From: Pirellulaceae bacterium | Lineage (GTDB): Bacteria; Planctomycetota; Planctomycetia; Pirellulales; Pirellulaceae | Direction: 5' to 3' | NCBI GenBank assembly: GCA_051010855.1 | Contig: JBPCVB010000751.1 | Location: 1 to 31,705, forward strand | Length of the DNA stretch: 31,705 nt | Shown: piece after piece, positions 2,896 through 17,648 of the stretch | Numbering within the stretch: the first letter of the stretch is position 1 | Layout: every line of letters starts with the position of its first letter | Program-made: the position numbers and the translations under genes | The notes under the pieces: generated by a model | Database searches by the model: none | What the model was told of the DNA's origin: nothing | What the model saw: the letters and a program-made list of their open reading frames with translations, nothing else

Positions 2896-3149
2896 CAGAG
2901 GGTGTGAGTAGTGACACTCAATGCTGTGCTGATCATAACCTGTTGAGGCACAAATCGGGAAACCGGCCCATGAGAACGAAAAAGCGAACCACTTTTTTTA
3001 GGGTTCTGAACAATTTTTACTTCCAAAATCGGAACGCAAAGTCGTCTAGTTTTCTCGTTGGACATCCGATTTTCCCTCGTGCTTCCTGCGCAATCGAGGT
3101 TGTAATCGATGTCCAGGGCCACGGTTAGGGTTCTGATTTGGGACAAGCC

Positions 3150-5336
3150 ATGTGTTGCAGCCGTTTCGTTGGGTCGATCTGCACATTGGTATTGATTTTG
3201 GGCCTGTCAGGACTACCTGCAGCGGATGCGCAACCAGTGACATGGTTGGGCGGAAACGGAAACTGGAGTGCCGGAGGTAACTGGTCAAGCGGCAGCCCAC
3301 CGAACAGTAACACGATTATGGTCTTGCTGGATGACGGAAATCCGGTGAACAGCATTGCTGCATTGGATATCAATGCGGTCATCGAAAGCATCGTGATTGA
3401 TTCCGGAGACCAACTCAACATCCTTAGCGGCCGCACATTGACCTTGGATGGACCGTCTTCGACTAACAACGGCATTATCGAGTTCAATCCGGTGAATCTC
3501 GCAACACTGAATATTGACGGTGATCTGACACTGGGCGGCAGCGGCCGCATGGTGCTGGGGGCTACCGCCAGCAACGCCAGTTTCGTGCAGGGGCTGACCG
3601 CCACGGACCGGCTGACCAACGGCATGCATCACACGATCGAGGGCCGGGGCAACCTGGGTAACGACATGATGTCGCTGACCAACGAGGGTCTGGTGATTGG
3701 CAACAACTCGGCGGGACCACTGGTGGTTGATCCGGGAAGCGGCGATGTGATTAACAACCACTTCATGCAAGCCGCCGATGGCGGCACATTGCAGCTGAAT
3801 GCCGGTCTGTTCACCAACACCAATGGCACGATCAAGGCCCTGGCGGATTCCATCGTGAACTTCAACGGTGGCACGATCAGTGGCGGCATACTGAGCAGTA
3901 CGGGAACCGGCAAGTTCACCGTGGGCAGTGGTCAAACGGGGACCTTGACCGGGGGCTCGATTACCAACGATGCCACCATCGAGTTCAATCCGGTGAATCT
4001 CGCAACGCTGAATATTGACGGTGATCTGACGCTGAGTGGCAGCGGCCGCATGGTGCTGGGCGTGACCGCCAGCAACGCCAGTTTCGTGCAGGGGCTGACC
4101 GCCACGGACCGGCTGACCAACGGTGCCAACCACACCATCGAGGGCCGGGGCAACCTGGGTAACGACATGATGTCGCTGACCAACGAGGGTCTGGTGATTG
4201 GCAACAACGCGGCTGGAGCACTGGTGGTTGATCCGGGAAGCGGCGATGTAATTAACAATAAATTCATGCAAGCCGCCGATGGGGGCACATTGCAGCTGAA
4301 TGCCGGTCTGTTCACCAACACCAATGGCACGATCAAGGCCCTGGCGGGTTCCATCGTGAACTTCAACGGTGGCACGATCAGCGGCGGCATCCTGAGCAGT
4401 ACGGGAACCGGCAAGTTCACCGTGGGCAGTAACCAAACGGTGACCTTGACTGGCGGCTCGATCACCAACGATGCCACCATCGAATTCAATCCAGTGGGTC
4501 CCGCAACACTGAATATTGACGGTGATCTGACACTGGGCGGCAGCGGCCGCATGGTGCTGGGCGTTTCCGCCAGCAACGCCAGTTTCGTGCAGGGGCTGAC
4601 CGCCACGGACCGGCTGACCAACGGCATCAATCACACCATCGAGGGCCGCGGCAACCTGGGTAACGACATGATGTCACTGACCAACGAGGGTCTGATCATC
4701 GCCAACATCGGCATCTTGGCTATCTCGTTGACCGACAACTATCTGCAAACCGGTGGCATCACCAGACTGGATGGCGGCAACATCTCAACCAGTGTGTTGC
4801 TGGATATCCAGGGCGGAATTCTCGAAGGTGATGGATTCATCAATGGAAACGTACAAATCGGAAATACAGCGACCGTCGCACCGGGACTTTCGGCAGGCCA
4901 GCTGACGATTAACGGATCGATGGAATTGTTTGATGGAAGCTTGATGGATATCGAGTTGGGCGGATTGGTTCAGGGTGCCCAATATGATTTCTTCGACGTT
5001 AACGGGGACGTTGTTCTGGGCGGCGCCTTGCAATTGAGTTTGATCGATGGCTTCGGAGACCTGGTGTTGAATTCCGACAGCTTCACCATTTTGGAATCAA
5101 ACAATTTGGCTGGCGTCTTTGACAATGTTGCGAACGGGGATTTCCTGGTTACCAGTGATGGTTTGTTCAAATTCCAGGTGAATTACGGGGCGGGCAGTGC
5201 CTTTAATGAGAATTACGTGGTGCTGGGTAACGCCACTGCCATTCCAGAACCGTCAGTCTACCTGTTTATGGCGCTCGTAATCGTGCTGCTTCTTGTCCGA
5301 CGACGTCACCCTTGTTATCCATCGTTGCTGGATTGA
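3150..5336 (+). CDS. PEP-CTERM surface protein with Gly/Asn/Thr-rich beta-helix-like repeats
   Basis: Signal peptide (LILGLSGLPAADA-QP); TWLGGNGNWSAGGNWS start motif; C-terminal IPEPS + hydrophobic helix + RRR is the PEP-CTERM signature. ATG at 3150 preferred to the track's TTG at 3138. Confidence 0.9.
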   Translation: MCCSRFVGSICTLVLILGLSGLPAADAQPVTWLGGNGNWSAGGNWSSGSPPNSNTIMVLLDDGNPVNSIAALDINAVIESIVIDSGDQLNILSGRTLTLDGPSSTNNGIIEFNPVNLATLNIDGDLTLGGSGRMVLGATASNASFVQGLTATDRLTNGMHHTIEGRGNLGNDMMSLTNEGLVIGNNSAGPLVVDPGSGDVINNHFMQAADGGTLQLNAGLFTNTNGTIKALADSIVNFNGGTISGGILSSTGTGKFTVGSGQTGTLTGGSITNDATIEFNPVNLATLNIDGDLTLSGSGRMVLGVTASNASFVQGLTATDRLTNGANHTIEGRGNLGNDMMSLTNEGLVIGNNAAGALVVDPGSGDVINNKFMQAADGGTLQLNAGLFTNTNGTIKALAGSIVNFNGGTISGGILSSTGTGKFTVGSNQTVTLTGGSITNDATIEFNPVGPATLNIDGDLTLGGSGRMVLGVSASNASFVQGLTATDRLTNGINHTIEGRGNLGNDMMSLTNEGLIIANIGILAISLTDNYLQTGGITRLDGGNISTSVLLDIQGGILEGDGFINGNVQIGNTATVAPGLSAGQLTINGSMELFDGSLMDIELGGLVQGAQYDFFDVNGDVVLGGALQLSLIDGFGDLVLNSDSFTILESNNLAGVFDNVANGDFLVTSDGLFKFQVNYGAGSAFNENYVVLGNATAIPEPSVYLFMALVIVLLLVRRRHPCYPSLLD
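3477..4694 (+). repeat. Intragenic tandem repeat, 501-nt (167-aa) unit, about 2.4 copies
   Basis: ATCGA(G/A)TTCAATCC starts at 3477, 3978 and 4479, an exact 501-nt period; about 32 mismatches between copies 1 and 2 by manual count (about 94% identity); the third copy ends near 4694. Confidence 0.95.
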
Positions 5337-9125: not shown

Positions 9126-10230
9126 CTACGCTTCCGCCTTGACACGCCAGCGCAGGTAGGCGTCCAGAAACGGCTGGATTTCGCCGTCGAGGACCTTGCC
9201 AAAATCGCCGATCAGGTGACCGGTGCGCGCGTCCTTGACGCGTTGGTCCGGGTGCAGGAAATAGTTGCGAATTTGCGAACCGAATCCGACGCGGGGCCGG
9301 TTCTGGTATTTGGCCGCTTCTTCTTCCTCGCGTTTGGCTTCTTCCAGTCGTGCCAGCTGGGCTCGAAGCATCTTCCACGCAGTGGCCCGGTTCTTGTGCT
9401 GGCTGCGTTCGCTTTGACACTGCACAGCGATCCCGGAGGGGGCGTGGGTCAAACGGACGGCGCTGTCGGTCTTGTTCACATGCTGCCCACCAGCACCGCT
9501 GGCCCGGTAGGTATCTTCACGAACCTCCGATTTGTCGATCTCGATTTCCACGGCTTCAGAAATTTCCGGAGAGACATCAACGGCGGCAAAGCTGGTTTGG
9601 CGTTTGCCATCCGCGTTGAAAGGGCTGATCCGTACCAGTCGGTGCATACCATCCTCGCCCTTGAGATACCCAAACGCCATCGGTCCGCGAATCACGATGG
9701 TGACACTGTTGATACCAGCCTCATCGTTTTCGTTCTTGTCCATTAAGCCGACGCTGTAATCATTTTTCTGGGCCCACTGGGTGTACATCCGCAGCAGCAT
9801 GTCGGCCCAGTCGTTGGCGTCGGTCCCGCCGTCGCGGGCATTGATCGTCAGGATCGCTCCGCAATCGTCGTGCGGACCGTTCAGCAGCGACTTGAGTTCC
9901 AGGTCTTCCAGCGACGCTTCCAGTTGATTCAGTTCCGTTTCGACTTCCTGTTCGATTTCGGGATCTTCCTCGGCCATTTCCAGTAGCGCATCCAGGTCGT
10001 TGCTGGAATCAATGAGTGTCGAGAGCGGACCGACAATGGCTTTGAGCGACTTCAGTTGCGCAACGATTTCCTGGGCGGATTCCTGGTTGTCCCAGAAACC
10101 GGGAGCCGCCATTTTTTCATTCTCGATAACGCGAATTTGAGCTTCCTTGGCAGCATAGTCAAAGACTGTCCCGCAGCTGCGTAATGCGTTGCCGGATCGA
10201 GTTGGCGCGATCAAGGAATTCGGCGTTCAC
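9126..10230 (-). CDS. prfB: Peptide chain release factor 2, made via programmed +1 frameshift; join(10230..10162,10160..9126), 367 aa
   Basis: GGTDANDW, RLVRISPF (SPF tripeptide) and GAGGQHVNKTDSAVR (GGQ). Frame 0 from GTG at 10230 encodes MNAEFLDRANSIRQRITQLRDSL and meets CTT TGA C; the +1 frame continues DYAAKEAQ. Confidence 0.97.
10158..10164 (-). promoter_or_regulatory. prfB +1 ribosomal frameshift site CTTTGAC
   Basis: The + strand reads GTCAAAG at 10158-10164, i.e. CTT-TGA-C after codon 22 on the minus strand; this is the canonical RF2 autoregulatory site. Confidence 0.95.
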
Positions 10231-10681
10231 GGAAATCGGCTCCTGAAACAAAATGGGCCATGGCCCGGGGACAGTCGACTCGGAAACAATGAGTCCGTTG
10301 CGTAACAAGGATAGAAAAAAACGGCCTGGGGGAAAGGCCTGCACGCTTTGTGACGGTCGACTTCCTCGAATACCGGCCGGTCGATTCCCAAAAATTTGAC
10401 CGGCCTTTTGCCGGCGTTTACAGTGATATCCCACGATCGAGTTAAGTGGACTGCAGGTGGGCTGACAGCGTTTGTACCGGGTATCACGACCGCCAGCAGG
10501 AAACGACGGTGGATAGTGGGCCGGGGAAAGACGACGCCGCTGGCTTCGTATAATATAGATGCGACGGTGGCCCGGCGATTCTCGATGCAACGCCCGCTTG
10601 CCACGTCCGCGGTTGCCGGATTCTGCACGATCCAGCACCACCACGCGCGACAACTGACGTCAGACAGACGGAGAACGGAAA

Positions 10682-11881
10682 ATGGGATCACCCAAGAAAA
10701 AAGAGGATCCAGCCGCCGCCGCGGGAAAGGACGTTTCCACGACCGCCGAGGCGTTAAAGGCACGATTGCTCAAAGCGTCCTCCGACAACGAAGTTGACAA
10801 GTATTTCCGGGCGCTGGTCAAGCTGGAAGGCAGCGACTTGCACATGAAGGTCGGCCAGCCGCCGATTATCCGGATTCACGGTACGCTCAAGCCGCTGAAT
10901 CGCGAGTCGATCGGTGCGGAAGAAATGATCGACCTGTTGCTGCCCATGCTGGATGACCGGACACGGAAGATTTTTCATGAGACCGGCGGTGCCGACTTTG
11001 CCTATGTTGTCGATGTGGATGGCGAGAGTTGGCGTTTTCGTGTGAACATGCTGCAGCAGCTGGGCCGGCTCGGTCTGGTCGCGCGACGCGTCAACAACTT
11101 CATTCCCAACTTTGAAGGCCTGCACCTGCCGCCGGTGATCGAGACGCTGTGTCACCACGATCAGGGTATGGTGTTGCTGGCCGGAGTCACCGGTTCCGGC
11201 AAGAGTACCACGATCGCCTCGATGTTGAACTACATCAACCGGCACTACGTGAAACACATCCTGACGCTGGAAGATCCCATCGAGTTTGTATTTCGTGATG
11301 AAAAATGCCTGATTAACCAGCGGGAAGTCGGCATGGATGTGGTCGATTTCAGTATCGGCATGAAGCATGCGGTGCGTGAAGACCCGGATATTATTCTGGT
11401 CGGCGAGATGCGTGACGAAGAAACATTTATGACAGCTATTCACGCCGCCGAGACCGGTCACCTGGTGTTTGGCACGATTCACGCGTCAACTGGTCCGTCG
11501 ACAATCGGCCGGATTCTGGATTTGTTTCCCGAGGAAATGCACTCGGCGATTCGCAGCGCGATTGCCATGAATATGAAAGCGATCGTTGCCCAGAAATTGC
11601 TGCCGAGTATCAGGGAAGGCGTGGGCCGCGTGCCCACCGCCGAGATTATGACGTTCAATCCGACCGTGCGCAAGCTGGTGCTTGAAGAACAGGATCACAA
11701 ACTGGGCGATGCCATTCGCATCGGCGTGGAAGAAGGGATGCAGGATTCCACGATGAGCCTTAAACAGCTCGTCGATGACGAGTTGATTGACCGTCCCACC
11801 GCATTCCAGGTTGCCCCGAACCGGGATGCCCTGAAGATGGCCCTCAAGGGAATTAATGTTTCGCAGCCTGGAATTCTCTAG
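10682..11881 (+). CDS. pilT: PilT/PilU-family type IV pilus retraction-type ATPase
   Basis: 399 aa; Walker A GVTGSGKST, Asp box TLEDPIEF, Walker B REDPDIILVGEMRD, His box AAETGHLVFGTIH; GMQDST near the C-terminus; SD GGAG upstream. Confidence 0.93.
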   Translation: MGSPKKKEDPAAAAGKDVSTTAEALKARLLKASSDNEVDKYFRALVKLEGSDLHMKVGQPPIIRIHGTLKPLNRESIGAEEMIDLLLPMLDDRTRKIFHETGGADFAYVVDVDGESWRFRVNMLQQLGRLGLVARRVNNFIPNFEGLHLPPVIETLCHHDQGMVLLAGVTGSGKSTTIASMLNYINRHYVKHILTLEDPIEFVFRDEKCLINQREVGMDVVDFSIGMKHAVREDPDIILVGEMRDEETFMTAIHAAETGHLVFGTIHASTGPSTIGRILDLFPEEMHSAIRSAIAMNMKAIVAQKLLPSIREGVGRVPTAEIMTFNPTVRKLVLEEQDHKLGDAIRIGVEEGMQDSTMSLKQLVDDELIDRPTAFQVAPNRDALKMALKGINVSQPGIL

Positions 11882-11949
11882 GCTCTGCCCCGTAATTTGG
11901 GAGCCTCGACCTCCCGGAAAATGAATTAAAGTTCAGAGCCTTAAACAAT

Positions 11950-13728
11950 ATGACCTCACGCCTGGCCGCGCTTGCCACGTTCGTTGCCTGCTTTGTGTTT
12001 GTGGCGGGCCTTGCTGCTCCGCTGTTCGCGCAGTCGGATTGGCCACCCTATCCGTCGGCCGGTGGTGAACACGACATCGTGCGTGGCGCCGGAGGTTACT
12101 TTAGCTGGATCAAGCTGCTGCTGATCGTGGTGATCTTTCTTGCCTGGGTTAAGGCAGCCGACTGGATCAACCGCGACGCCGTTCGGTTTTCCGAACACAC
12201 TGGCATGTCGGCAGACGTCTTCAATCCCATTATTGTGTTCAGTTTTGTGGCTGGATTCCTCGCCGTGCTGTGCATACCGATTTTTATCGCCGGCTACGCG
12301 GTTTATCTGGCAGGAGCCCTGTTGCCTCCGGGGATCTATGCGTTGCAACGACGCGGCAGAATTCCCGAGGAAGCCAAAACCGGAAAGCTGTTTGCCGAGG
12401 ACGTCGGAGCCAGTACCGTGCCTGTCACCATCAAGGCGGCCGGGCGGACCGGTGACGAGTCACAATCCAATTTGATCCGCGCGCGGCAATCGCCCGTGTT
12501 CGACTTTACCAGCCAGATGTTGCTGGACGCAATCAACAGTCGCACCGATCAGATTTTGCTGGATTACACTCGCGACACGGTTGCAGTGCGCAATCAGGTC
12601 GACGGAATCTGGCACCAGATGCCTGTGCTGGATCGGGAGTCCGGTGACGGCGTACTGTGGGTGCTGAAAACCCTTTCAAATCTCAATCCCGCTGAACGCC
12701 GTCAACAACAGCGTGGCCAGATCGACACCAAGGCGGGTCGCGAGAAAGTCCAGTTTGACATCACAACCCAGGGTGTCCCGACAGGTGAGCGTGTGCTGAT
12801 CAAATTGCTGCGGGAAACCAAGCTGACGCTGGACCTGGAAAAACTTGGCATGGCTACCGAAATGCTGGAATCTCTCAAGTCAAAACTCGATAGCAGTGGT
12901 CTTGTGATCATTTCGGCGCCACCCGGACAGGGACTGTCGGCCTCCTGGGGCGCTGCGCTCAATGAAGCCGACCGCTTCACTCGGGACTTTGTCGGTGTTG
13001 TCGAGCTGGATGACCGCGAAACCGAACGCGAGAACATCCATGTGGAACGACTGGATATCCGTGGTGGCAACAGTCCTTCCAGCATCCTGAAGACAATGAT
13101 CCTCAAGCAACCCAACGCCTTCGTTATGCCCAATCTGGCCGACAAGGAAACGACCGACATGCTGACAAGCCAGGTAGTTGACGATCAAAGGACCCTGATT
13201 ACCCAGGTCCAGGCATCATCTGCGCCCGAAGCGATGTTGCGGGTTTTTGCCATGGCAGGCGATCGCGGGCAGTTGGCCAAAGCCGTCACGGCCGTTACCT
13301 GCCAGCGACTGGTACGGCGGTTGTGCGACAAGTGCAAACAGCCGGTGCAGGTGAATCCCCAGGCGATCCAGCAAATAGGAGGTGACCCCGAGGTGCACAC
13401 CGTGATTTATCGCGATTACCAGTTGCCGCCAATGGAACAGCGCGTGGACGAACAGGGCAAACCTGTGCACATGGAACCCTGCAAGGCCTGTGCAGGCATC
13501 GGATTTCGTGGTCGCACGGCCATTTATGAATTACTGTTGGTAGATGATCCCATTCGTCAGGCGCTGGTCAAATCACCTAAACTGGAGACGATTACTCAAG
13601 TGGCGCAACAAAGCGGCAACTTAACATTGATGCAACAAGGCTATCGCGCTGTGCTGGAAGGACGCACGTCGTTGGCTGAAGTTCAGCGCGTTCTCCAACC
13701 TCAACAACAAGGCCAGGCAAAAAGGTAA
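11950..13728 (+). CDS. GspE/PilB-like protein, membrane-anchored, degenerate ATPase motifs
   Basis: 592 aa; signal-peptide-like N-terminus plus about three TM segments; N2D-like VAVRNQVDG; CQRLVRRLCDKC...CKAC.G.GFRGRTAIYELL tetracysteine region; Walker A reads SAPPGQGLS (no Lys) and Walker B KQPNAFVMPNLAD. Confidence 0.85.
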   Translation: MTSRLAALATFVACFVFVAGLAAPLFAQSDWPPYPSAGGEHDIVRGAGGYFSWIKLLLIVVIFLAWVKAADWINRDAVRFSEHTGMSADVFNPIIVFSFVAGFLAVLCIPIFIAGYAVYLAGALLPPGIYALQRRGRIPEEAKTGKLFAEDVGASTVPVTIKAAGRTGDESQSNLIRARQSPVFDFTSQMLLDAINSRTDQILLDYTRDTVAVRNQVDGIWHQMPVLDRESGDGVLWVLKTLSNLNPAERRQQQRGQIDTKAGREKVQFDITTQGVPTGERVLIKLLRETKLTLDLEKLGMATEMLESLKSKLDSSGLVIISAPPGQGLSASWGAALNEADRFTRDFVGVVELDDRETERENIHVERLDIRGGNSPSSILKTMILKQPNAFVMPNLADKETTDMLTSQVVDDQRTLITQVQASSAPEAMLRVFAMAGDRGQLAKAVTAVTCQRLVRRLCDKCKQPVQVNPQAIQQIGGDPEVHTVIYRDYQLPPMEQRVDEQGKPVHMEPCKACAGIGFRGRTAIYELLLVDDPIRQALVKSPKLETITQVAQQSGNLTLMQQGYRAVLEGRTSLAEVQRVLQPQQQGQAKR

Positions 13729-13740
13729 ATCGGCACCGAA

Positions 13741-15075
13741 ATGTCAGAAGGCGAAGAACTCAATCCTGTTCCCATTGATCAACTGCCGCCGATCAAGTTC
13801 GCGGCCGCGGGCGACACGGCCGATTTGCGCGAGGCCAATCTGCAAGCCGTGCAGCCTTCGCCCGGTTACAGCTATCTCGTCGTCATGGTGGCCGACGCCA
13901 TTACCAAGCGGGCTGATCTGGTCCTGATGGACTTTACATCCAACGCCGTCGGCGTGCGTTATCAGGTGGACGGCTTGTGGCACAACATGCCCACGATGCC
14001 GAGAACCTCCGGTGACTACATGCTGGCTTCGCTGAAGCAACTCGCCGGGCTGGATTATCGCGAGCGACGGGCCCGTCAGATTGGCAAGTTTCAGGCCGAG
14101 TACCTGAAGAAGAAACACAAGTGCCGGGTGACCAGCCAGGGCGTCAGTTCCGGAGAACGTGTCGCGCTGGTCGTAGATCGTGAAAAGCCGCCGCTGGAAA
14201 ACGTGGAGGACATTGGCATGCGGCCCGGCATGCAATCCCAACTGGTCAAGCTGATGAATGAACCGGCCGGTCTGATCATGTTCAGCGGATTGCCTGGCGA
14301 CGGATTGTCCACGACCTGGCGCGCTGCCTTGCAGTCCACCGACCGATTCATGCGTGACTTTTTTGTTGTCGAGGAGCAATCCAGACAGGAACCCGAGATC
14401 ATCAACGTCACTCGCGAAACCTACGACTCATCGACAGGTGATACGGTCCACAGTGTGATGAGGTCATTGATGCTGCGTGAACCCAACGTCGTGGCCTTCA
14501 CCGAAATGGCAGACGGATCATCGCTGGATGAACTGAGCAAGTTATCCAACAAACACGAACTGACGACGTTTTGTCGCCTGCCGGCGCGTCACGCCGTGGA
14601 AGCCGTCATGCGGGGACTCATGCTAAAACCGAATGTTCCGGAATTCGCCAGGGCCCTGCGGGCCGTTACGGGACAACGATTGCTCCGCCTGTTGTGCCAG
14701 ACTTGCCGGCAAGCTTACCAGCCCAATCCCAACTTGATCGCCCAGCTGGGACTGCCTCCAGCACGAGTTCCCGTCCTGTATCGACATTTTCAGCCAGCGC
14801 CCGAGCAGGTGATGGACGCCCAGGGGCGGCCGATTGAAATTGAACCGTGCGAAAACTGTGGTGGCCCCGGCTATTTCGAGCGGACCGGAATCTTCGAGTT
14901 GTTGCTGGTCGATGATCGCTTCCGCGCAGCCATGCAGGATCCCGAGCCGAACGTGCAGAAACTGGCGGCCGCAGCGCAGCAATCCGGGCATATTACCTTG
15001 CGTGAGGAAGGCATCGTGCTGGTGGCTCGCGGTGACACGTCGCTGGAAGAGTTGCAACGAGTGCTCAAGAAATAA
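13741..15075 (+). CDS. GspE/PilB-like protein, soluble paralog, degenerate ATPase motifs
   Basis: 444 aa; aligns by eye with the cytoplasmic part of the upstream gene (VGVRYQVDGLWH); GQRLLRLLCQTC...CENC.G.GYFERTGIFELL; Walker A SGLPGDGLS, Walker B REPNVVAFTEMAD. Confidence 0.85.
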   Translation: MSEGEELNPVPIDQLPPIKFAAAGDTADLREANLQAVQPSPGYSYLVVMVADAITKRADLVLMDFTSNAVGVRYQVDGLWHNMPTMPRTSGDYMLASLKQLAGLDYRERRARQIGKFQAEYLKKKHKCRVTSQGVSSGERVALVVDREKPPLENVEDIGMRPGMQSQLVKLMNEPAGLIMFSGLPGDGLSTTWRAALQSTDRFMRDFFVVEEQSRQEPEIINVTRETYDSSTGDTVHSVMRSLMLREPNVVAFTEMADGSSLDELSKLSNKHELTTFCRLPARHAVEAVMRGLMLKPNVPEFARALRAVTGQRLLRLLCQTCRQAYQPNPNLIAQLGLPPARVPVLYRHFQPAPEQVMDAQGRPIEIEPCENCGGPGYFERTGIFELLLVDDRFRAAMQDPEPNVQKLAAAAQQSGHITLREEGIVLVARGDTSLEELQRVLKK

Positions 15076-15118
15076 AACGTAATCCCATACAACCGATTGT
15101 TAACGTGAACGACCTGGC

Positions 15119-15763
15119 ATGACCACTGCGCTGTGCATTCTGACCCTGATTGCGATACCCGCTGCCATGTGGTTTCTGGGTTTGTGGAACAATGTGATCA
15201 CGTTCGTAAATGTCGTGCTGGCCGCCATTATCGCGACCAATTTTTTTGAGCCCATGGCTGATCGACTGGACGGTGGCGCCAGCAGCTACACGTACCTGCT
15301 GGATTTTGTCTGTTTGTGGCTGCTGTTCTTCTTCTCGTTTGTGGTCTTGCGAACACTTACAGATTTTCTCAGTAAGTATCGCCTGCAATTCAACGTGTGG
15401 CTGGACATGGCCGGTCGGACCGTGTTTTCATTTGCCACCGCCTGGGTGTTCATCTGCTTTATGGTGTTTACGTTGCACACAGCTCCCTTGCCCGTGGATT
15501 CGTTCCAGGAATTCCCGGATTCCACCAATTTTGCGGGCAGTCCCGACCGGCTGTGGCTGGGATTTATGCAAAGTCGTTCGCGTGGCGGCATGGCAGCGGC
15601 CCTCAACAGTCCCTTGATGCCGGAATACAATACGGGCGAGCTGCATTCGGATGATCAGGATCTGGAATGCCGCGTGTTTGATTCCCGCAGCGACTATATC
15701 TACAAATACCACGAACGACGGGCCAGGCTTTCCGAACAGGAGTCATTGCGTGTTAACCGTTAA
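15119..15763 (+). CDS. CvpA-like membrane protein
   Basis: 214 aa; about four N-terminal TM helices with GLWNNVITFVNVVLAAIIATNFFEPMAD and FFFSFVVLR..D..AGRTVF, the CvpA-like pattern; polar C-terminal tail. Confidence 0.65.
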   Translation: MTTALCILTLIAIPAAMWFLGLWNNVITFVNVVLAAIIATNFFEPMADRLDGGASSYTYLLDFVCLWLLFFFSFVVLRTLTDFLSKYRLQFNVWLDMAGRTVFSFATAWVFICFMVFTLHTAPLPVDSFQEFPDSTNFAGSPDRLWLGFMQSRSRGGMAAALNSPLMPEYNTGELHSDDQDLECRVFDSRSDYIYKYHERRARLSEQESLRVNR

Positions 15764-15814
15764 CGAAGCGCTCGGCAGTCACGCCCGGTCTTCTTTCAGG
15801 ATTACAACAAGACC

Positions 15815-16642
15815 GTGAACAACGCTCTCGAAATAGAACTGCCTGACAGGGAAGAGATCGAATATCGGCCATTCAACCCACTGGCCATGCTCGCCCTGGT
15901 ACTGGCGCTGATCGGTGGTCTGACGGTTGCCACATTGTTTTTGTTGCCGATCAACATTTTGGCAGCCGTGCTGGCAATTCGGGTGATTCGCGGGTCTGGC
16001 AACGACGGTCGTTTCAGTGGTGGAGGCGTGGCGGTCCTGGCCCTCTTTTTGGCCATCGTTACAGGGGTCATGGCATTGACCTACAACTTTGGTCGCGACT
16101 GGTACATCAAGAGCACTGCCCGGCGATATTCGATGATTGTGATGCAGGAACTGGCCAACGGGCGTCCCGAATACGCGCTTTCCTATGGCGTGGATTACAA
16201 CCATCGCATGCTTCCGGGTTCCGATCTGAAAAAGTACTACGAGGGTGTGGACGCAAAGATGGGTGAGCCAATGGAGCCCTGGCGGCACCTGCAAACCTGG
16301 CTGGGCAAGAACCCGACCCGGCAACTTTACGGCGACGGGATGCGTGGCAAGCTGGAATTCCTGGGCTACGGCGAACACAAACGGGGTCCGGATTGGGAAC
16401 ACGTGAACGTGAGATACCGCTACACTCCGGATTCACCCGATTTTGAGCTGGTCGAGTTTCGGATTGAGATGCTGCGTCGCGATTGGGGCAGACCCTACGA
16501 TTGGCAATGGCGTTTTCGTGATTTCTGGGTGGAAAAGGGACCCAAACAGGGCGTAATTACCATTGGCCGACCACCGGGTGACAAGGGTACCCCCACTGGG
16601 CCACCTCGTGGCCCGCAAAAAAGGCCCGGCCCGCAAAAGTGA
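15815..16642 (+). CDS. Hypothetical membrane protein (DUF4190-like N-terminus)
   Basis: 275 aa; YRPFNPLAMLALVLAL...G.GVAVLALFLA hydrophobic hairpin pattern, then a soluble domain and a Pro/Gly/Lys tail; GTG start. Confidence 0.7.
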   Translation: MNNALEIELPDREEIEYRPFNPLAMLALVLALIGGLTVATLFLLPINILAAVLAIRVIRGSGNDGRFSGGGVAVLALFLAIVTGVMALTYNFGRDWYIKSTARRYSMIVMQELANGRPEYALSYGVDYNHRMLPGSDLKKYYEGVDAKMGEPMEPWRHLQTWLGKNPTRQLYGDGMRGKLEFLGYGEHKRGPDWEHVNVRYRYTPDSPDFELVEFRIEMLRRDWGRPYDWQWRFRDFWVEKGPKQGVITIGRPPGDKGTPTGPPRGPQKRPGPQK

Positions 16643-16679
16643 TTGGTGAATTGCCGGGATCCCTGTTCCTGCCGCGTGC

Positions 16680-16711
16680 AAAAAAAAGGCAGGCCAATGC
16701 GGCCCGCCTTT
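16680..16711 (-). terminator. Intrinsic terminator for the 16747..17472 gene, possibly bidirectional
   Basis: Minus strand AAAGGCGGGCC-GCATT-GGCCTGCC followed by eight T; stem with one G-U pair, 35 nt after the stop and between convergent genes. Confidence 0.8.
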
Positions 16712-16746
16712 CCGGTAAGTCGTAAACAGCGAAAGCAAAACAGGGT

Positions 16747-17472
16747 TTATTGATCGCCCTCGTCGTCGGCGTTTTGGTCGTCGTCGGATTTGTCGCCGTC
16801 GGATTTTTCGTCAGCTGCGTCTTCGTCCGATGTTTCACCGGTCGCGGGTTCTTGTTGCTCGCCGGTTTCCTCGGTCGACGATTCTTCTTCCGATGACTCC
16901 TTGTCGCCACCGGCTTCCTCGTCATCGTCCCCGTCGTTGTTTCGCGGAGGTGTGGGAGGTCGCGCCCCTGCGCCGCCACCGATGTTCAGATTCGGTGGAT
17001 TCATATTCATGACAATGGTTTCTTTTTCCTTGGGGAAGTTCTCTTCCACATCCAGCGGCATGTCGGCAGCTGCGGACAGGTAGAACAGTTTCCCTTTCAG
17101 GTCCGGCTTCTTCTCCACGAGTCCGGGTTTCAATTTGGTGAAGACAACGTGGATGTAGTGGCTTTTGAACAGCAATCCACTGGGCCAGCGATAGGTATGA
17201 ACCACGCATTCGTCGTGCAGTGTTTCGTCAATGGCCGCTGGTTCGCGGCCCATCAGCGACTGAATGTCCTCACTGGTCTTTTCACCCGATTTGGAACTGG
17301 CATCAACCGACTTGATCTTTTCCCAGGCCGACTGAAATTGTGGTCGCGCGTAGGCGAATTCAAAAATACAACCTGCTCCTACCACGATGAGGAACAGCAC
17401 CAGAATGATCAGTCGCGCCGACGAACCCTTGCGGGTTTGCTGCTGCTGTTGATCGGTTTGCTCATTTGTCAT
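16747..17472 (-). CDS. Single-pass membrane protein with long acidic disordered C-terminal tail
   Basis: 241 aa; TM RLIILVLFLIVVGAGCIF; last about 65 aa D/E-rich (DGDDDEEAGGDKESSEEESS...DDEGDQ). Confidence 0.75.
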   Translation of the reverse strand: MTNEQTDQQQQQTRKGSSARLIILVLFLIVVGAGCIFEFAYARPQFQSAWEKIKSVDASSKSGEKTSEDIQSLMGREPAAIDETLHDECVVHTYRWPSGLLFKSHYIHVVFTKLKPGLVEKKPDLKGKLFYLSAAADMPLDVEENFPKEKETIVMNMNPPNLNIGGGAGARPPTPPRNNDGDDDEEAGGDKESSEEESSTEETGEQQEPATGETSDEDAADEKSDGDKSDDDQNADDEGDQ

Positions 17473-17648
17473 TACGCGGGCCTCAAATGTCAGAATATCT
17501 GTGAATTATCGATTTTATCCGGGTTGCCGCCTATTCTAATGACGGATCGTGAATCGTGGAGACGGAAACCGTCGATTGCCTGGAATTTTGCCGGAGTTGC
17601 CGCAGCGGTTCGTACCGAGGTTTACCCACGCAGTCAGCCGATCGCGGA

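Follow-up and report, generated by a model that had tools for sequence, protein, structure and literature searches.

The window analyzed here is the whole stretch of 31,705 nucleotides that forms positions 1 to 31,705 of contig JBPCVB010000751.1 from a Pirellulaceae bacterium (assembly GCA_051010855.1). Between positions 10682 and 16642 it contains five open reading frames (ORFs), all co-oriented on the plus strand and separated by gaps of 68, 12, 43, and 51 nucleotides, exactly as an initial annotation made from the sequence had listed them. Gene 1 (10682..11881, 399 amino acids) encodes an intact hexameric ATPase of the PilT/PilU family, which is a paralogue distinct from the canonical PilT of type IVa pili and is termed PilT2 in the following. 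Gene 2 (11950..13728, 592 amino acids) encodes a membrane-anchored PilB/GspE-like protein, predicted to be catalytically dead, with an N2 domain, a C-terminal ATPase-fold domain, and a zinc module, and gene 3 (13741..15075, 444 amino acids) a soluble paralogue of gene 2 that is likewise predicted to be dead. They are followed by gene 4 (15119..15763, 214 amino acids) for a divergent CvpA-like protein with four transmembrane helices and by gene 5 (15815..16642, 275 amino acids, GTG start) for a DUF4190-like protein with a hairpin of two transmembrane helices. All features of the window described below lie on the plus strand unless stated otherwise. A cassette of PilT2, anchored PilB-like protein, and CvpA-like protein is found in several planctomycete lineages, and the window contains the five-gene form of it. 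This cassette is an operational grouping and not a published family; the window belongs to it by the order of the three genes and by the conserved residues of the anchor domain. In full-text searches of the literature, no publication came up in which a PilB-like protein that is anchored or dead is described together with PilT and CvpA.

The five encoded proteins

PilT2 scored 386 bits against TIGR01420 (cut-off 319.1), which makes it a member of the PilT/PilU family, and 261 bits against solved PilT structures. In the translation all four boxes are intact, i.e., Walker A (GVTGSGKST, 11183..11209), the Asp box (EDPIEF, 11270-11287), Walker B (DPDIILVGEMRD, 11381-11416), and the His box (TGHLVFGTIHA, 11453-11485). 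The region of AIRNLIRE, a motif of PilT proteins competent for retraction, reads TVRKLVLE (amino acids 328-335), with R, L, and E kept and the remaining positions either conservatively replaced or changed. PilT2 shares 40% identity with the canonical PilT of its own genome (contig C823) and 66-94% with the cassette PilT proteins of relatives. In all five genomes of the order that were checked, four of them assembled in one or two contigs, the canonical PilT is encoded in a pilB-pilT-pilB cluster and the cassette PilT is present in addition. Each of the two proteins is 71-81% identical across the order, compared to about 40% identity between them, and this similar level suggests that cassette PilT and canonical PilT are equally constrained. 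By these comparisons PilT2 is a second paralogue and would represent a motor separate from the PilT of the pilB-pilT-pilB cluster.

Two side observations concern the cassette PilT of other genomes. In genome G007, which belongs to the same genus and is assembled in two contigs, this gene is present as two overlapping frames (L015:6752-8003), reflecting either a frameshift or an indel error of long reads; the same genome carries a third PilT-family gene (L045). In several unrelated lineages, a hisF-type gene (His_biosynth) is located directly 5' of the cassette PilT (L042:2572-3345, L049:2933-3700, L053:624-1391, L055:2430-3224). This neighbour, which is not present in the window, may be a remnant of an ancestral gene order.

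The proteins encoded by genes 2 and 3 match T2SSE (PF00437, cut-off 24.9) from end to end with 165.8 and 136.6 bits, respectively, covering profile positions 5-370 (residues 180-580 of gene 2) and 12-370. Both align to PilF, PilB, and GspE structures with E-values of 1e-30 to 1e-37. The cut-offs of the equivalog profiles for PilB and GspE (TIGR02538, TIGR02533) were not reached, the scores of genes 2 and 3 being 169 and 137 bits for GspE (cut-off 630) and 158 and 125 bits for PilB (cut-off 676). In an alignment with the PilB proteins of the same genome, the Walker A sequence GSGKT is changed to GQGLS in gene 2 and to GDGLS in gene 3, with Leu in place of the Lys; the degenerate motifs are APPGQGLS at 12916..12939 and GLPGDGLS at 14287..14310. 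Neither protein has a recognizable Asp box or His box in this alignment. The Glu of Walker B is missing in gene 2 and kept at the corresponding position of gene 3. Judged by these motifs, both proteins are catalytically dead and have presumably lost nucleotide binding. The initial annotation had described an intact PilT as the only complete ATPase next to two GspE/PilB-like pseudo-ATPases, which agrees with the boxes intact in gene 1 and lost in genes 2 and 3.

Other parts of the PilB fold are retained in both proteins, in particular the motifs of the N2 domain and the C-terminal domain. A family-specific DRFxRDF motif is located 3' of the degenerate Walker A of gene 2 (12970-12990). The zinc module of gene 2 is a tetracysteine module (CDKC ... 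CKAC, 13324..13491) with an insertion relative to PilB, and gene 3 contains the corresponding Cys pairs CQTC and CENC (14695-14706, 14848-14859). Each of the four zinc Cys residues is conserved to at least 90% in alignment A2 of the family. Gene 3 is 39-40% identical to gene 2, and its start coincides with the end of the anchor and linker of the latter. Outside the cassette family, six distant matches of about 1000 amino acids (P0232, P0242, P0250, P0253, P0255, P0268) contain two T2SSE-matching stretches, and the aligned stretch of these proteins keeps all ATPase boxes.

The anchor domain comprises amino acids 1-170 of gene 2 (11950..12459). According to a hydropathy scan only, it has a start resembling a signal peptide, a short peptide located outside, and three transmembrane helices. 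The three hydrophobic helices fit the earlier assignment of one pseudo-ATPase as membrane-anchored and of its paralogue as soluble. Within this domain, W66, D76, P110, and Y130 are invariant and Y50, W91, N92, P126, and R134 nearly invariant in alignments A2 and A3. Given the four invariant residues, the conservation appears higher than a purely passive tether requires. The anchor-domain profile built from alignment A3 recognized the window's domain with 186.5 bits, the sequence being itself a row of that profile. Of the 251 genomes sampled across the phylum, 38 contain the domain according to this profile, each in a single copy that always lies within a frame of about 550-680 amino acids (one of them cut by a contig end). 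The distribution is patchy: the domain was detected in all 13 genomes of family f18 and all three of f19, and none was found in f28 (0/14) and f41 (0/9).

Gene 4 passed the cut-off of Pfam Colicin_V (PF02674) marginally (32.8 bits, cut-off 29.3), in line with its previous designation as CvpA-like. Housekeeping CvpA, for which the proteins of relatives score 83-91 bits, is a different paralogue. Gene 4 carries a conserved PDRxWLxFxQ motif after the last transmembrane helix (15542-15571). In several small-genome lineages, a larger protein of 380-730 amino acids is encoded downstream of the anchored gene, and its N-terminus appears to be the CvpA-like part; at five of these loci (L058:6689-8602, L059:2851-4671, L060:2910-4655, L062:2766-4871, L064:6818-8539) the protein has 570-700 amino acids.

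For gene 5, the label DUF4190-like proposed in the initial annotation is based on the hairpin of two transmembrane helices, on a match of the orthologue from genome G012 that stays below the cut-off (23.6 bits, cut-off 35), and on Atlas neighbours, DUF4190 being present in about 21% of one Atlas neighbour cluster. Gene 5 itself has no Pfam match and does not reach the gathering score of DUF4190 (PF13828). Its AF2 model, with a mean confidence score (pLDDT) of 82.6, shows the transmembrane hairpin, a long helix, and a four-stranded C-terminal alpha/beta domain. Foldseek gave weak NTF2/SnoaL-like matches for the latter (E-values 0.01-0.1), with weak similarity to ketosteroid-isomerase-like and PBP2a N-terminal domains (target-normalised TM-score ≤0.57), and the Atlas comparison gave TM-scores of 0.42/0.56 to DUF4440. 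The modelled C-terminal domain is thus possibly NTF2-like. Gene 5 is fast-evolving, with Y17, G69, and R131 being invariant, and positional orthologues are present in at least 12 of the 20 loci compared in the order (see below).

Conservation, selection, and duplication history of the cassette

The order-level sample comprised 40 relatives from 17 families. Clear orthologues of gene 2 (E<1e-50) were present in 37 of them, and one further relative has a divergent syntenic copy; on this count, the trio of PilT, anchored PilB-like, and CvpA-like genes is syntenic in 38 of the 40. Gene order was compared in 20 loci from different genomes representing 19 genera. PilT is located directly upstream of the PilB-like gene in 18 of these loci and the CvpA-like gene directly downstream in 17, that is, in 17 of the 18 loci with an anchored PilB-like gene. 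In 14 of 17 loci, the stop codon of PilT and the following ATG overlap as TGATG or TAATG, and from this overlap PilT2 and the anchored gene are predicted to be translationally coupled in the relatives. The flanking genes are common only to the window's own genus and one neighbouring genus. Outside the order sample, 13 more loci show the order PilT, anchored PilB-like gene, CvpA-like gene; they come from families f18, f19, f23, f57, f74, f80, f82, f83, and f100 and from one further f1 genome. The conserved gene order on which the initial annotation had made its proposal depend is therefore present throughout the order and also in further families of the phylum. The complete five-gene order also occurs on two metagenome contigs.

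Selection was assessed by the ratio of nonsynonymous to synonymous substitution rates (dN/dS) according to Nei-Gojobori, in comparison with an 82%-identical metagenome contig and with a congener; dS was near saturation, which if anything inflates the ratios. The comparison with the metagenome contig gave dN/dS values of 0.022 (PilT2), 0.074 (gene 2), and 0.060 (gene 3). Against the congener, the values were 0.04, 0.14, and 0.13, respectively, and 0.17 for the CvpA-like gene and 0.47 for gene 5. By these ratios both dead ATPases are under purifying selection, and the values of 0.06-0.14 for the pseudo-ATPases are far from the value near 1 that would have spoken for relaxed selection. Judged from gene order and substitution ratios, the five genes are a conserved unit kept by purifying selection and not a chance cluster.

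The loss of the catalytic boxes is common to the order: the Walker A Lys, the Asp box, and the His box are missing in all aligned members, and the Walker B Glu in nearly all of them. Anchored orthologues in families f18, f23, f74, and f82 keep GPTGxGK[ST] and GE[IV]RD and therefore have catalytically intact boxes. In the tree these active anchored forms are basal to a dead clade with 100% support, which suggests that the dead state is derived. About 265 family members and representatives were examined, of which 194 are dead and anchored and 50 dead and soluble; the dead members make up more than 140 representative clusters.

Genes 2 and 3 fall into two sister clades with 99-100% support, each of which holds the window's own genus and genome G017, and the tandem pair is present in all ten congeners and in G017. 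By this topology, the soluble gene 3 is the product of an old tandem duplication of the anchored gene in this lineage. The soluble clade also takes in proteins of cassettes in which the soluble copy alone is kept, namely those of G012 and G020 and of the three metagenome contigs carrying P0133, P0134, and P0146. The CvpA-like gene is missing in all five of these soluble-only cassettes, which links the anchor to CvpA. A gene-5-like protein directly follows in all of them except G020. The G012 and G020 genomes, both 99% complete, have kept the housekeeping CvpA, and the anchor domain was not found anywhere in either of them. The catalytically intact anchored proteins of some lineages, the age of the soluble paralogue, and the recognition of the cassette PilT as a second paralogue go beyond the initial annotation. 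New here are also the co-loss of anchor and CvpA-like gene, the selection figures, and the quantification of the patchy distribution.

In genomes of family f18 with an intact anchored protein, a soluble dead paralogue is encoded in addition, at an unlinked site amid housekeeping genes (L035:4950-6257, L039:4986-6551, L040:4815-6158). It groups in the tree with the dead clade of the window's order, which may be due to long-branch attraction. In the window, PilT and the anchored gene are separated by a 68-nucleotide spacer (11882-11949); the congeners and most of the order have the 1-nucleotide stop/start overlap (TGATG/TAATG) at this position. Moreover, the bin of the window's genome (G000) contains a second whole cassette on contig C538 (L013:1-4608), which is 62-72% identical to that of the window and clusters in the tree with another congeneric species (G006) rather than with the window's copy. 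As this bin consists of 870 contigs with 5% contamination, it is probably a mix of two congeneric populations rather than a genome with two paralogous loci.

The five-gene block is preceded by a release-factor gene on the minus strand (9126-10214) and followed by a minus-strand ORF (16747-17472) and fabI. Profile searches of the contig gave no match to PilC (PF00482), prepilin N_methyl, or secretins, and no prepilin peptidase was found among the larger ORFs of the window. The initial annotation had correctly noted that these pilus components are missing from the window. Elsewhere in the same genome there are at least 13 T2SSE, 12 T2SSF-domain, 20 N_methyl, and 9 secretin matches. Type IV pilus genes are dispersed in these genomes, and a window lacking PilC and pilins is therefore hardly informative. 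Promoter and terminator scans at the locus gave counts not above those of shuffled sequence, and an Rfam scan of 9900-17600 revealed no riboswitch or leader and a single small RNA match at chance level. PADLOC assigned no defence-system membership, with PilT matching at the P-loop level only. In a search of sequencing runs, the window was present only in DNA runs of cave metagenomes. RNA-library contigs compared with the cassette of the cultured-type relative G023 yielded a few short fragments on PilT and the dead gene. None of these fragments spanned a gene junction, so that they show neither transcription nor an operon. By arrangement, the five genes could form one transcription unit. Apart from the cassette, the window contains a 732-amino-acid ORF at 3138-5336 (plus strand), which has no Pfam match and overlaps long ORFs on the opposite strand.

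Possible roles of the cassette

Motors of the PilT and PilB type work as soluble hexamers on a platform protein, which is PilC in type IV pili and GspF in type II secretion systems. For the cassette we propose, with a probability of roughly one half, that PilT2 is the sole motor and that the dead PilB-like proteins serve as docks or regulators, the anchor being coupled to the CvpA-like protein. PilT2 would be the only protein of the cassette that hydrolyses ATP. The dead PilB-like proteins would probably still form PilB-type rings; as docks or regulators without catalytic activity, they might hold PilT2 in position at the inner membrane or gate it there, and the conserved transmembrane domain of the anchored copy would work with the CvpA-like protein. 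The output of the cassette may target one of the pilus or type II secretion platforms of the genome or another envelope process. An ATPase-dead PilT still lets PilU retract pili (PMC6821130), which is a precedent for a silent member aiding an active one. The initial annotation had suggested a membrane platform formed with the CvpA-like protein. The common loss of anchor and CvpA-like gene fits a joint membrane role of the two. A mixed hetero-ring with PilT, also suggested there, is pure conjecture.

Several points weigh against this proposal. The co-loss of anchor and CvpA-like gene represents two independent events in the tree and is not statistically significant, and the G029 cassette is anchored and has no adjacent CvpA-like gene. 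In G020, PilT2 and the soluble dead gene are unlinked. That the dead proteins form rings and no longer bind nucleotides is deduced from motifs, and co-transcription solely from the gene arrangement. A complex prediction of PilT2 with amino acids 170-592 of gene 2 gave a score of 0.00, which is no answer and neither supports nor disproves an interaction.

Alternatively, the dead PilB-like proteins could act in trans as a brake or adaptor on PilC/GspF platforms, where they would block PilB or recruit PilT2 for retraction, so that the cassette would regulate normal filaments rather than a machine of its own. We regard this as rather doubtful. It is consistent with the retention of those signatures in the N2 domain and the C-terminal domain through which PilB forms its rings, and the potential targets are at hand, as many PilB, PilC, pilin, and secretin genes are located on other contigs of the genome and five module-bearing genomes of other families each have 4-9 PilC-type genes elsewhere. 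It would also account for the soluble-only cassettes, which work without anchor or CvpA. However, the cassette was never found beside pilus genes in the approximately 45 loci examined, and a simple competitor needs neither a strongly conserved anchor nor a dedicated CvpA-like partner. In addition, the anchor domain was not found in many of the sampled families of the phylum, which were compared regardless of their pili.

It is unlikely, in our view, that the cassette is an autonomous machine in which PilT2 hydrolyses ATP on a stator of anchored and soluble dead PilB-like rings and, via the anchor, drives the CvpA-like and possibly the two-helix protein for solute transport or envelope remodelling, without pilin or PilC. 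The cassette is indeed a compact, self-contained unit that brings its own membrane proteins, the loss of the anchor domain coincides with that of the CvpA-like gene, and no PilC or pilin was detected inside the cassette at any locus examined. CvpA has been tied to envelope stress and bile resistance in a preprint (bioRxiv 10.1101/2020.09.25.314492). However, lineages without anchor and CvpA keep PilT2 and the dead soluble protein, so that the membrane pair does not appear to be an indispensable core. A filament-independent derivative of the pilus motor, as put forward in the initial annotation, is not supported. Every module-bearing genome checked has 4-9 PilC-type genes elsewhere; a genome with the module and without PilC was not found among the five tested. 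To our knowledge, no PilT-family motor works without a PilC-type platform.

That the PilB-like genes are functionless leftovers of a pilus locus, with PilT2 and the membrane genes as unrelated neighbours, is hardly credible: all catalytic boxes are lost and in the order the dead proteins have an evolutionary rate about double that of PilT2 (33-37% versus 71-72% identity), but the frames are intact across the order and beyond, the DRFxRDF motif and the anchor residues are conserved in a family with numerous dead members, the predicted translational coupling is widespread, and the pseudogene reading was rejected on the basis of dN/dS and synteny.

The proposed docking or regulation of PilT2 by dead PilB-like proteins can be approached through natural experiments, i.e., active versus dead anchored proteins, anchored-plus-soluble versus soluble-only cassettes, and the co-loss of anchor and CvpA-like gene, and the question is testable in cultured strains. 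Working out the cassette could reveal in what way active motors are regulated or docked by their dead paralogues, could give CvpA a role, and could explain part of the unusual envelope biology of the Planctomycetota. If the cassette were an autonomous machine after all, it would represent the first motor of the PilT family whose output is not a filament, and CvpA would gain a mechanistic role.

Comparison with known systems

The proteins encoded by genes 2 and 3 resemble PilB and GspE in that they align over the whole N2 domain, the C-terminal ATPase domain, and the tetracysteine zinc module. They differ by the absence of the Walker A Lys, the Asp box, and the His box, in gene 2 also of the Walker B Glu, and by the absence of an N1/MshEN domain, and they score at about one fourth of the equivalog cut-offs. 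Gene 2 has a predicted signal peptide and three transmembrane helices of its own, whereas PilB and GspE are soluble proteins with PilM or GspL as tether. Furthermore, the zinc module of the cassette proteins contains an insertion, and the cassette genes do not adjoin those for PilC or pilins.

Gene 4 shares with CvpA (PF02674) the four transmembrane helices and a score above the Pfam cut-off. It differs from it by being a marginal match, a paralogue of the housekeeping protein, and by a C-terminal extension with its own conserved motif. In the FlaI-FlaH-FlaJ system of the archaellum and the DotB-DotO system of Dot/Icm, an active PilT/VirB11-type ATPase works together with a second, non-catalytic or membrane-associated ring, on which it is stacked or beside which it lies. 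The partners in the cassette are not homologous to these proteins, and the resemblance is an analogy of design only.

A parallel to a silent partner is the PilT/PilU pair, where PilU requires PilT but not the ATPase activity of PilT, so that a silent member as adaptor has a precedent (PMC6821130), and gene 1 is a full member of the PilT family. Unlike in this pair, the silent partner in the cassette belongs to the PilB/GspE clade instead of the PilT clade and is predicted to be membrane-embedded, and PilT2 is a second paralogue with 40% identity to canonical PilT and TVRKLVLE in place of AIRNLIRE. The cassette thus departs from the textbook picture by a PilB-clade protein that appears to be built into the membrane and to have lost catalysis while selection is retained, and that is tied to a dedicated second PilT and a CvpA-type protein.

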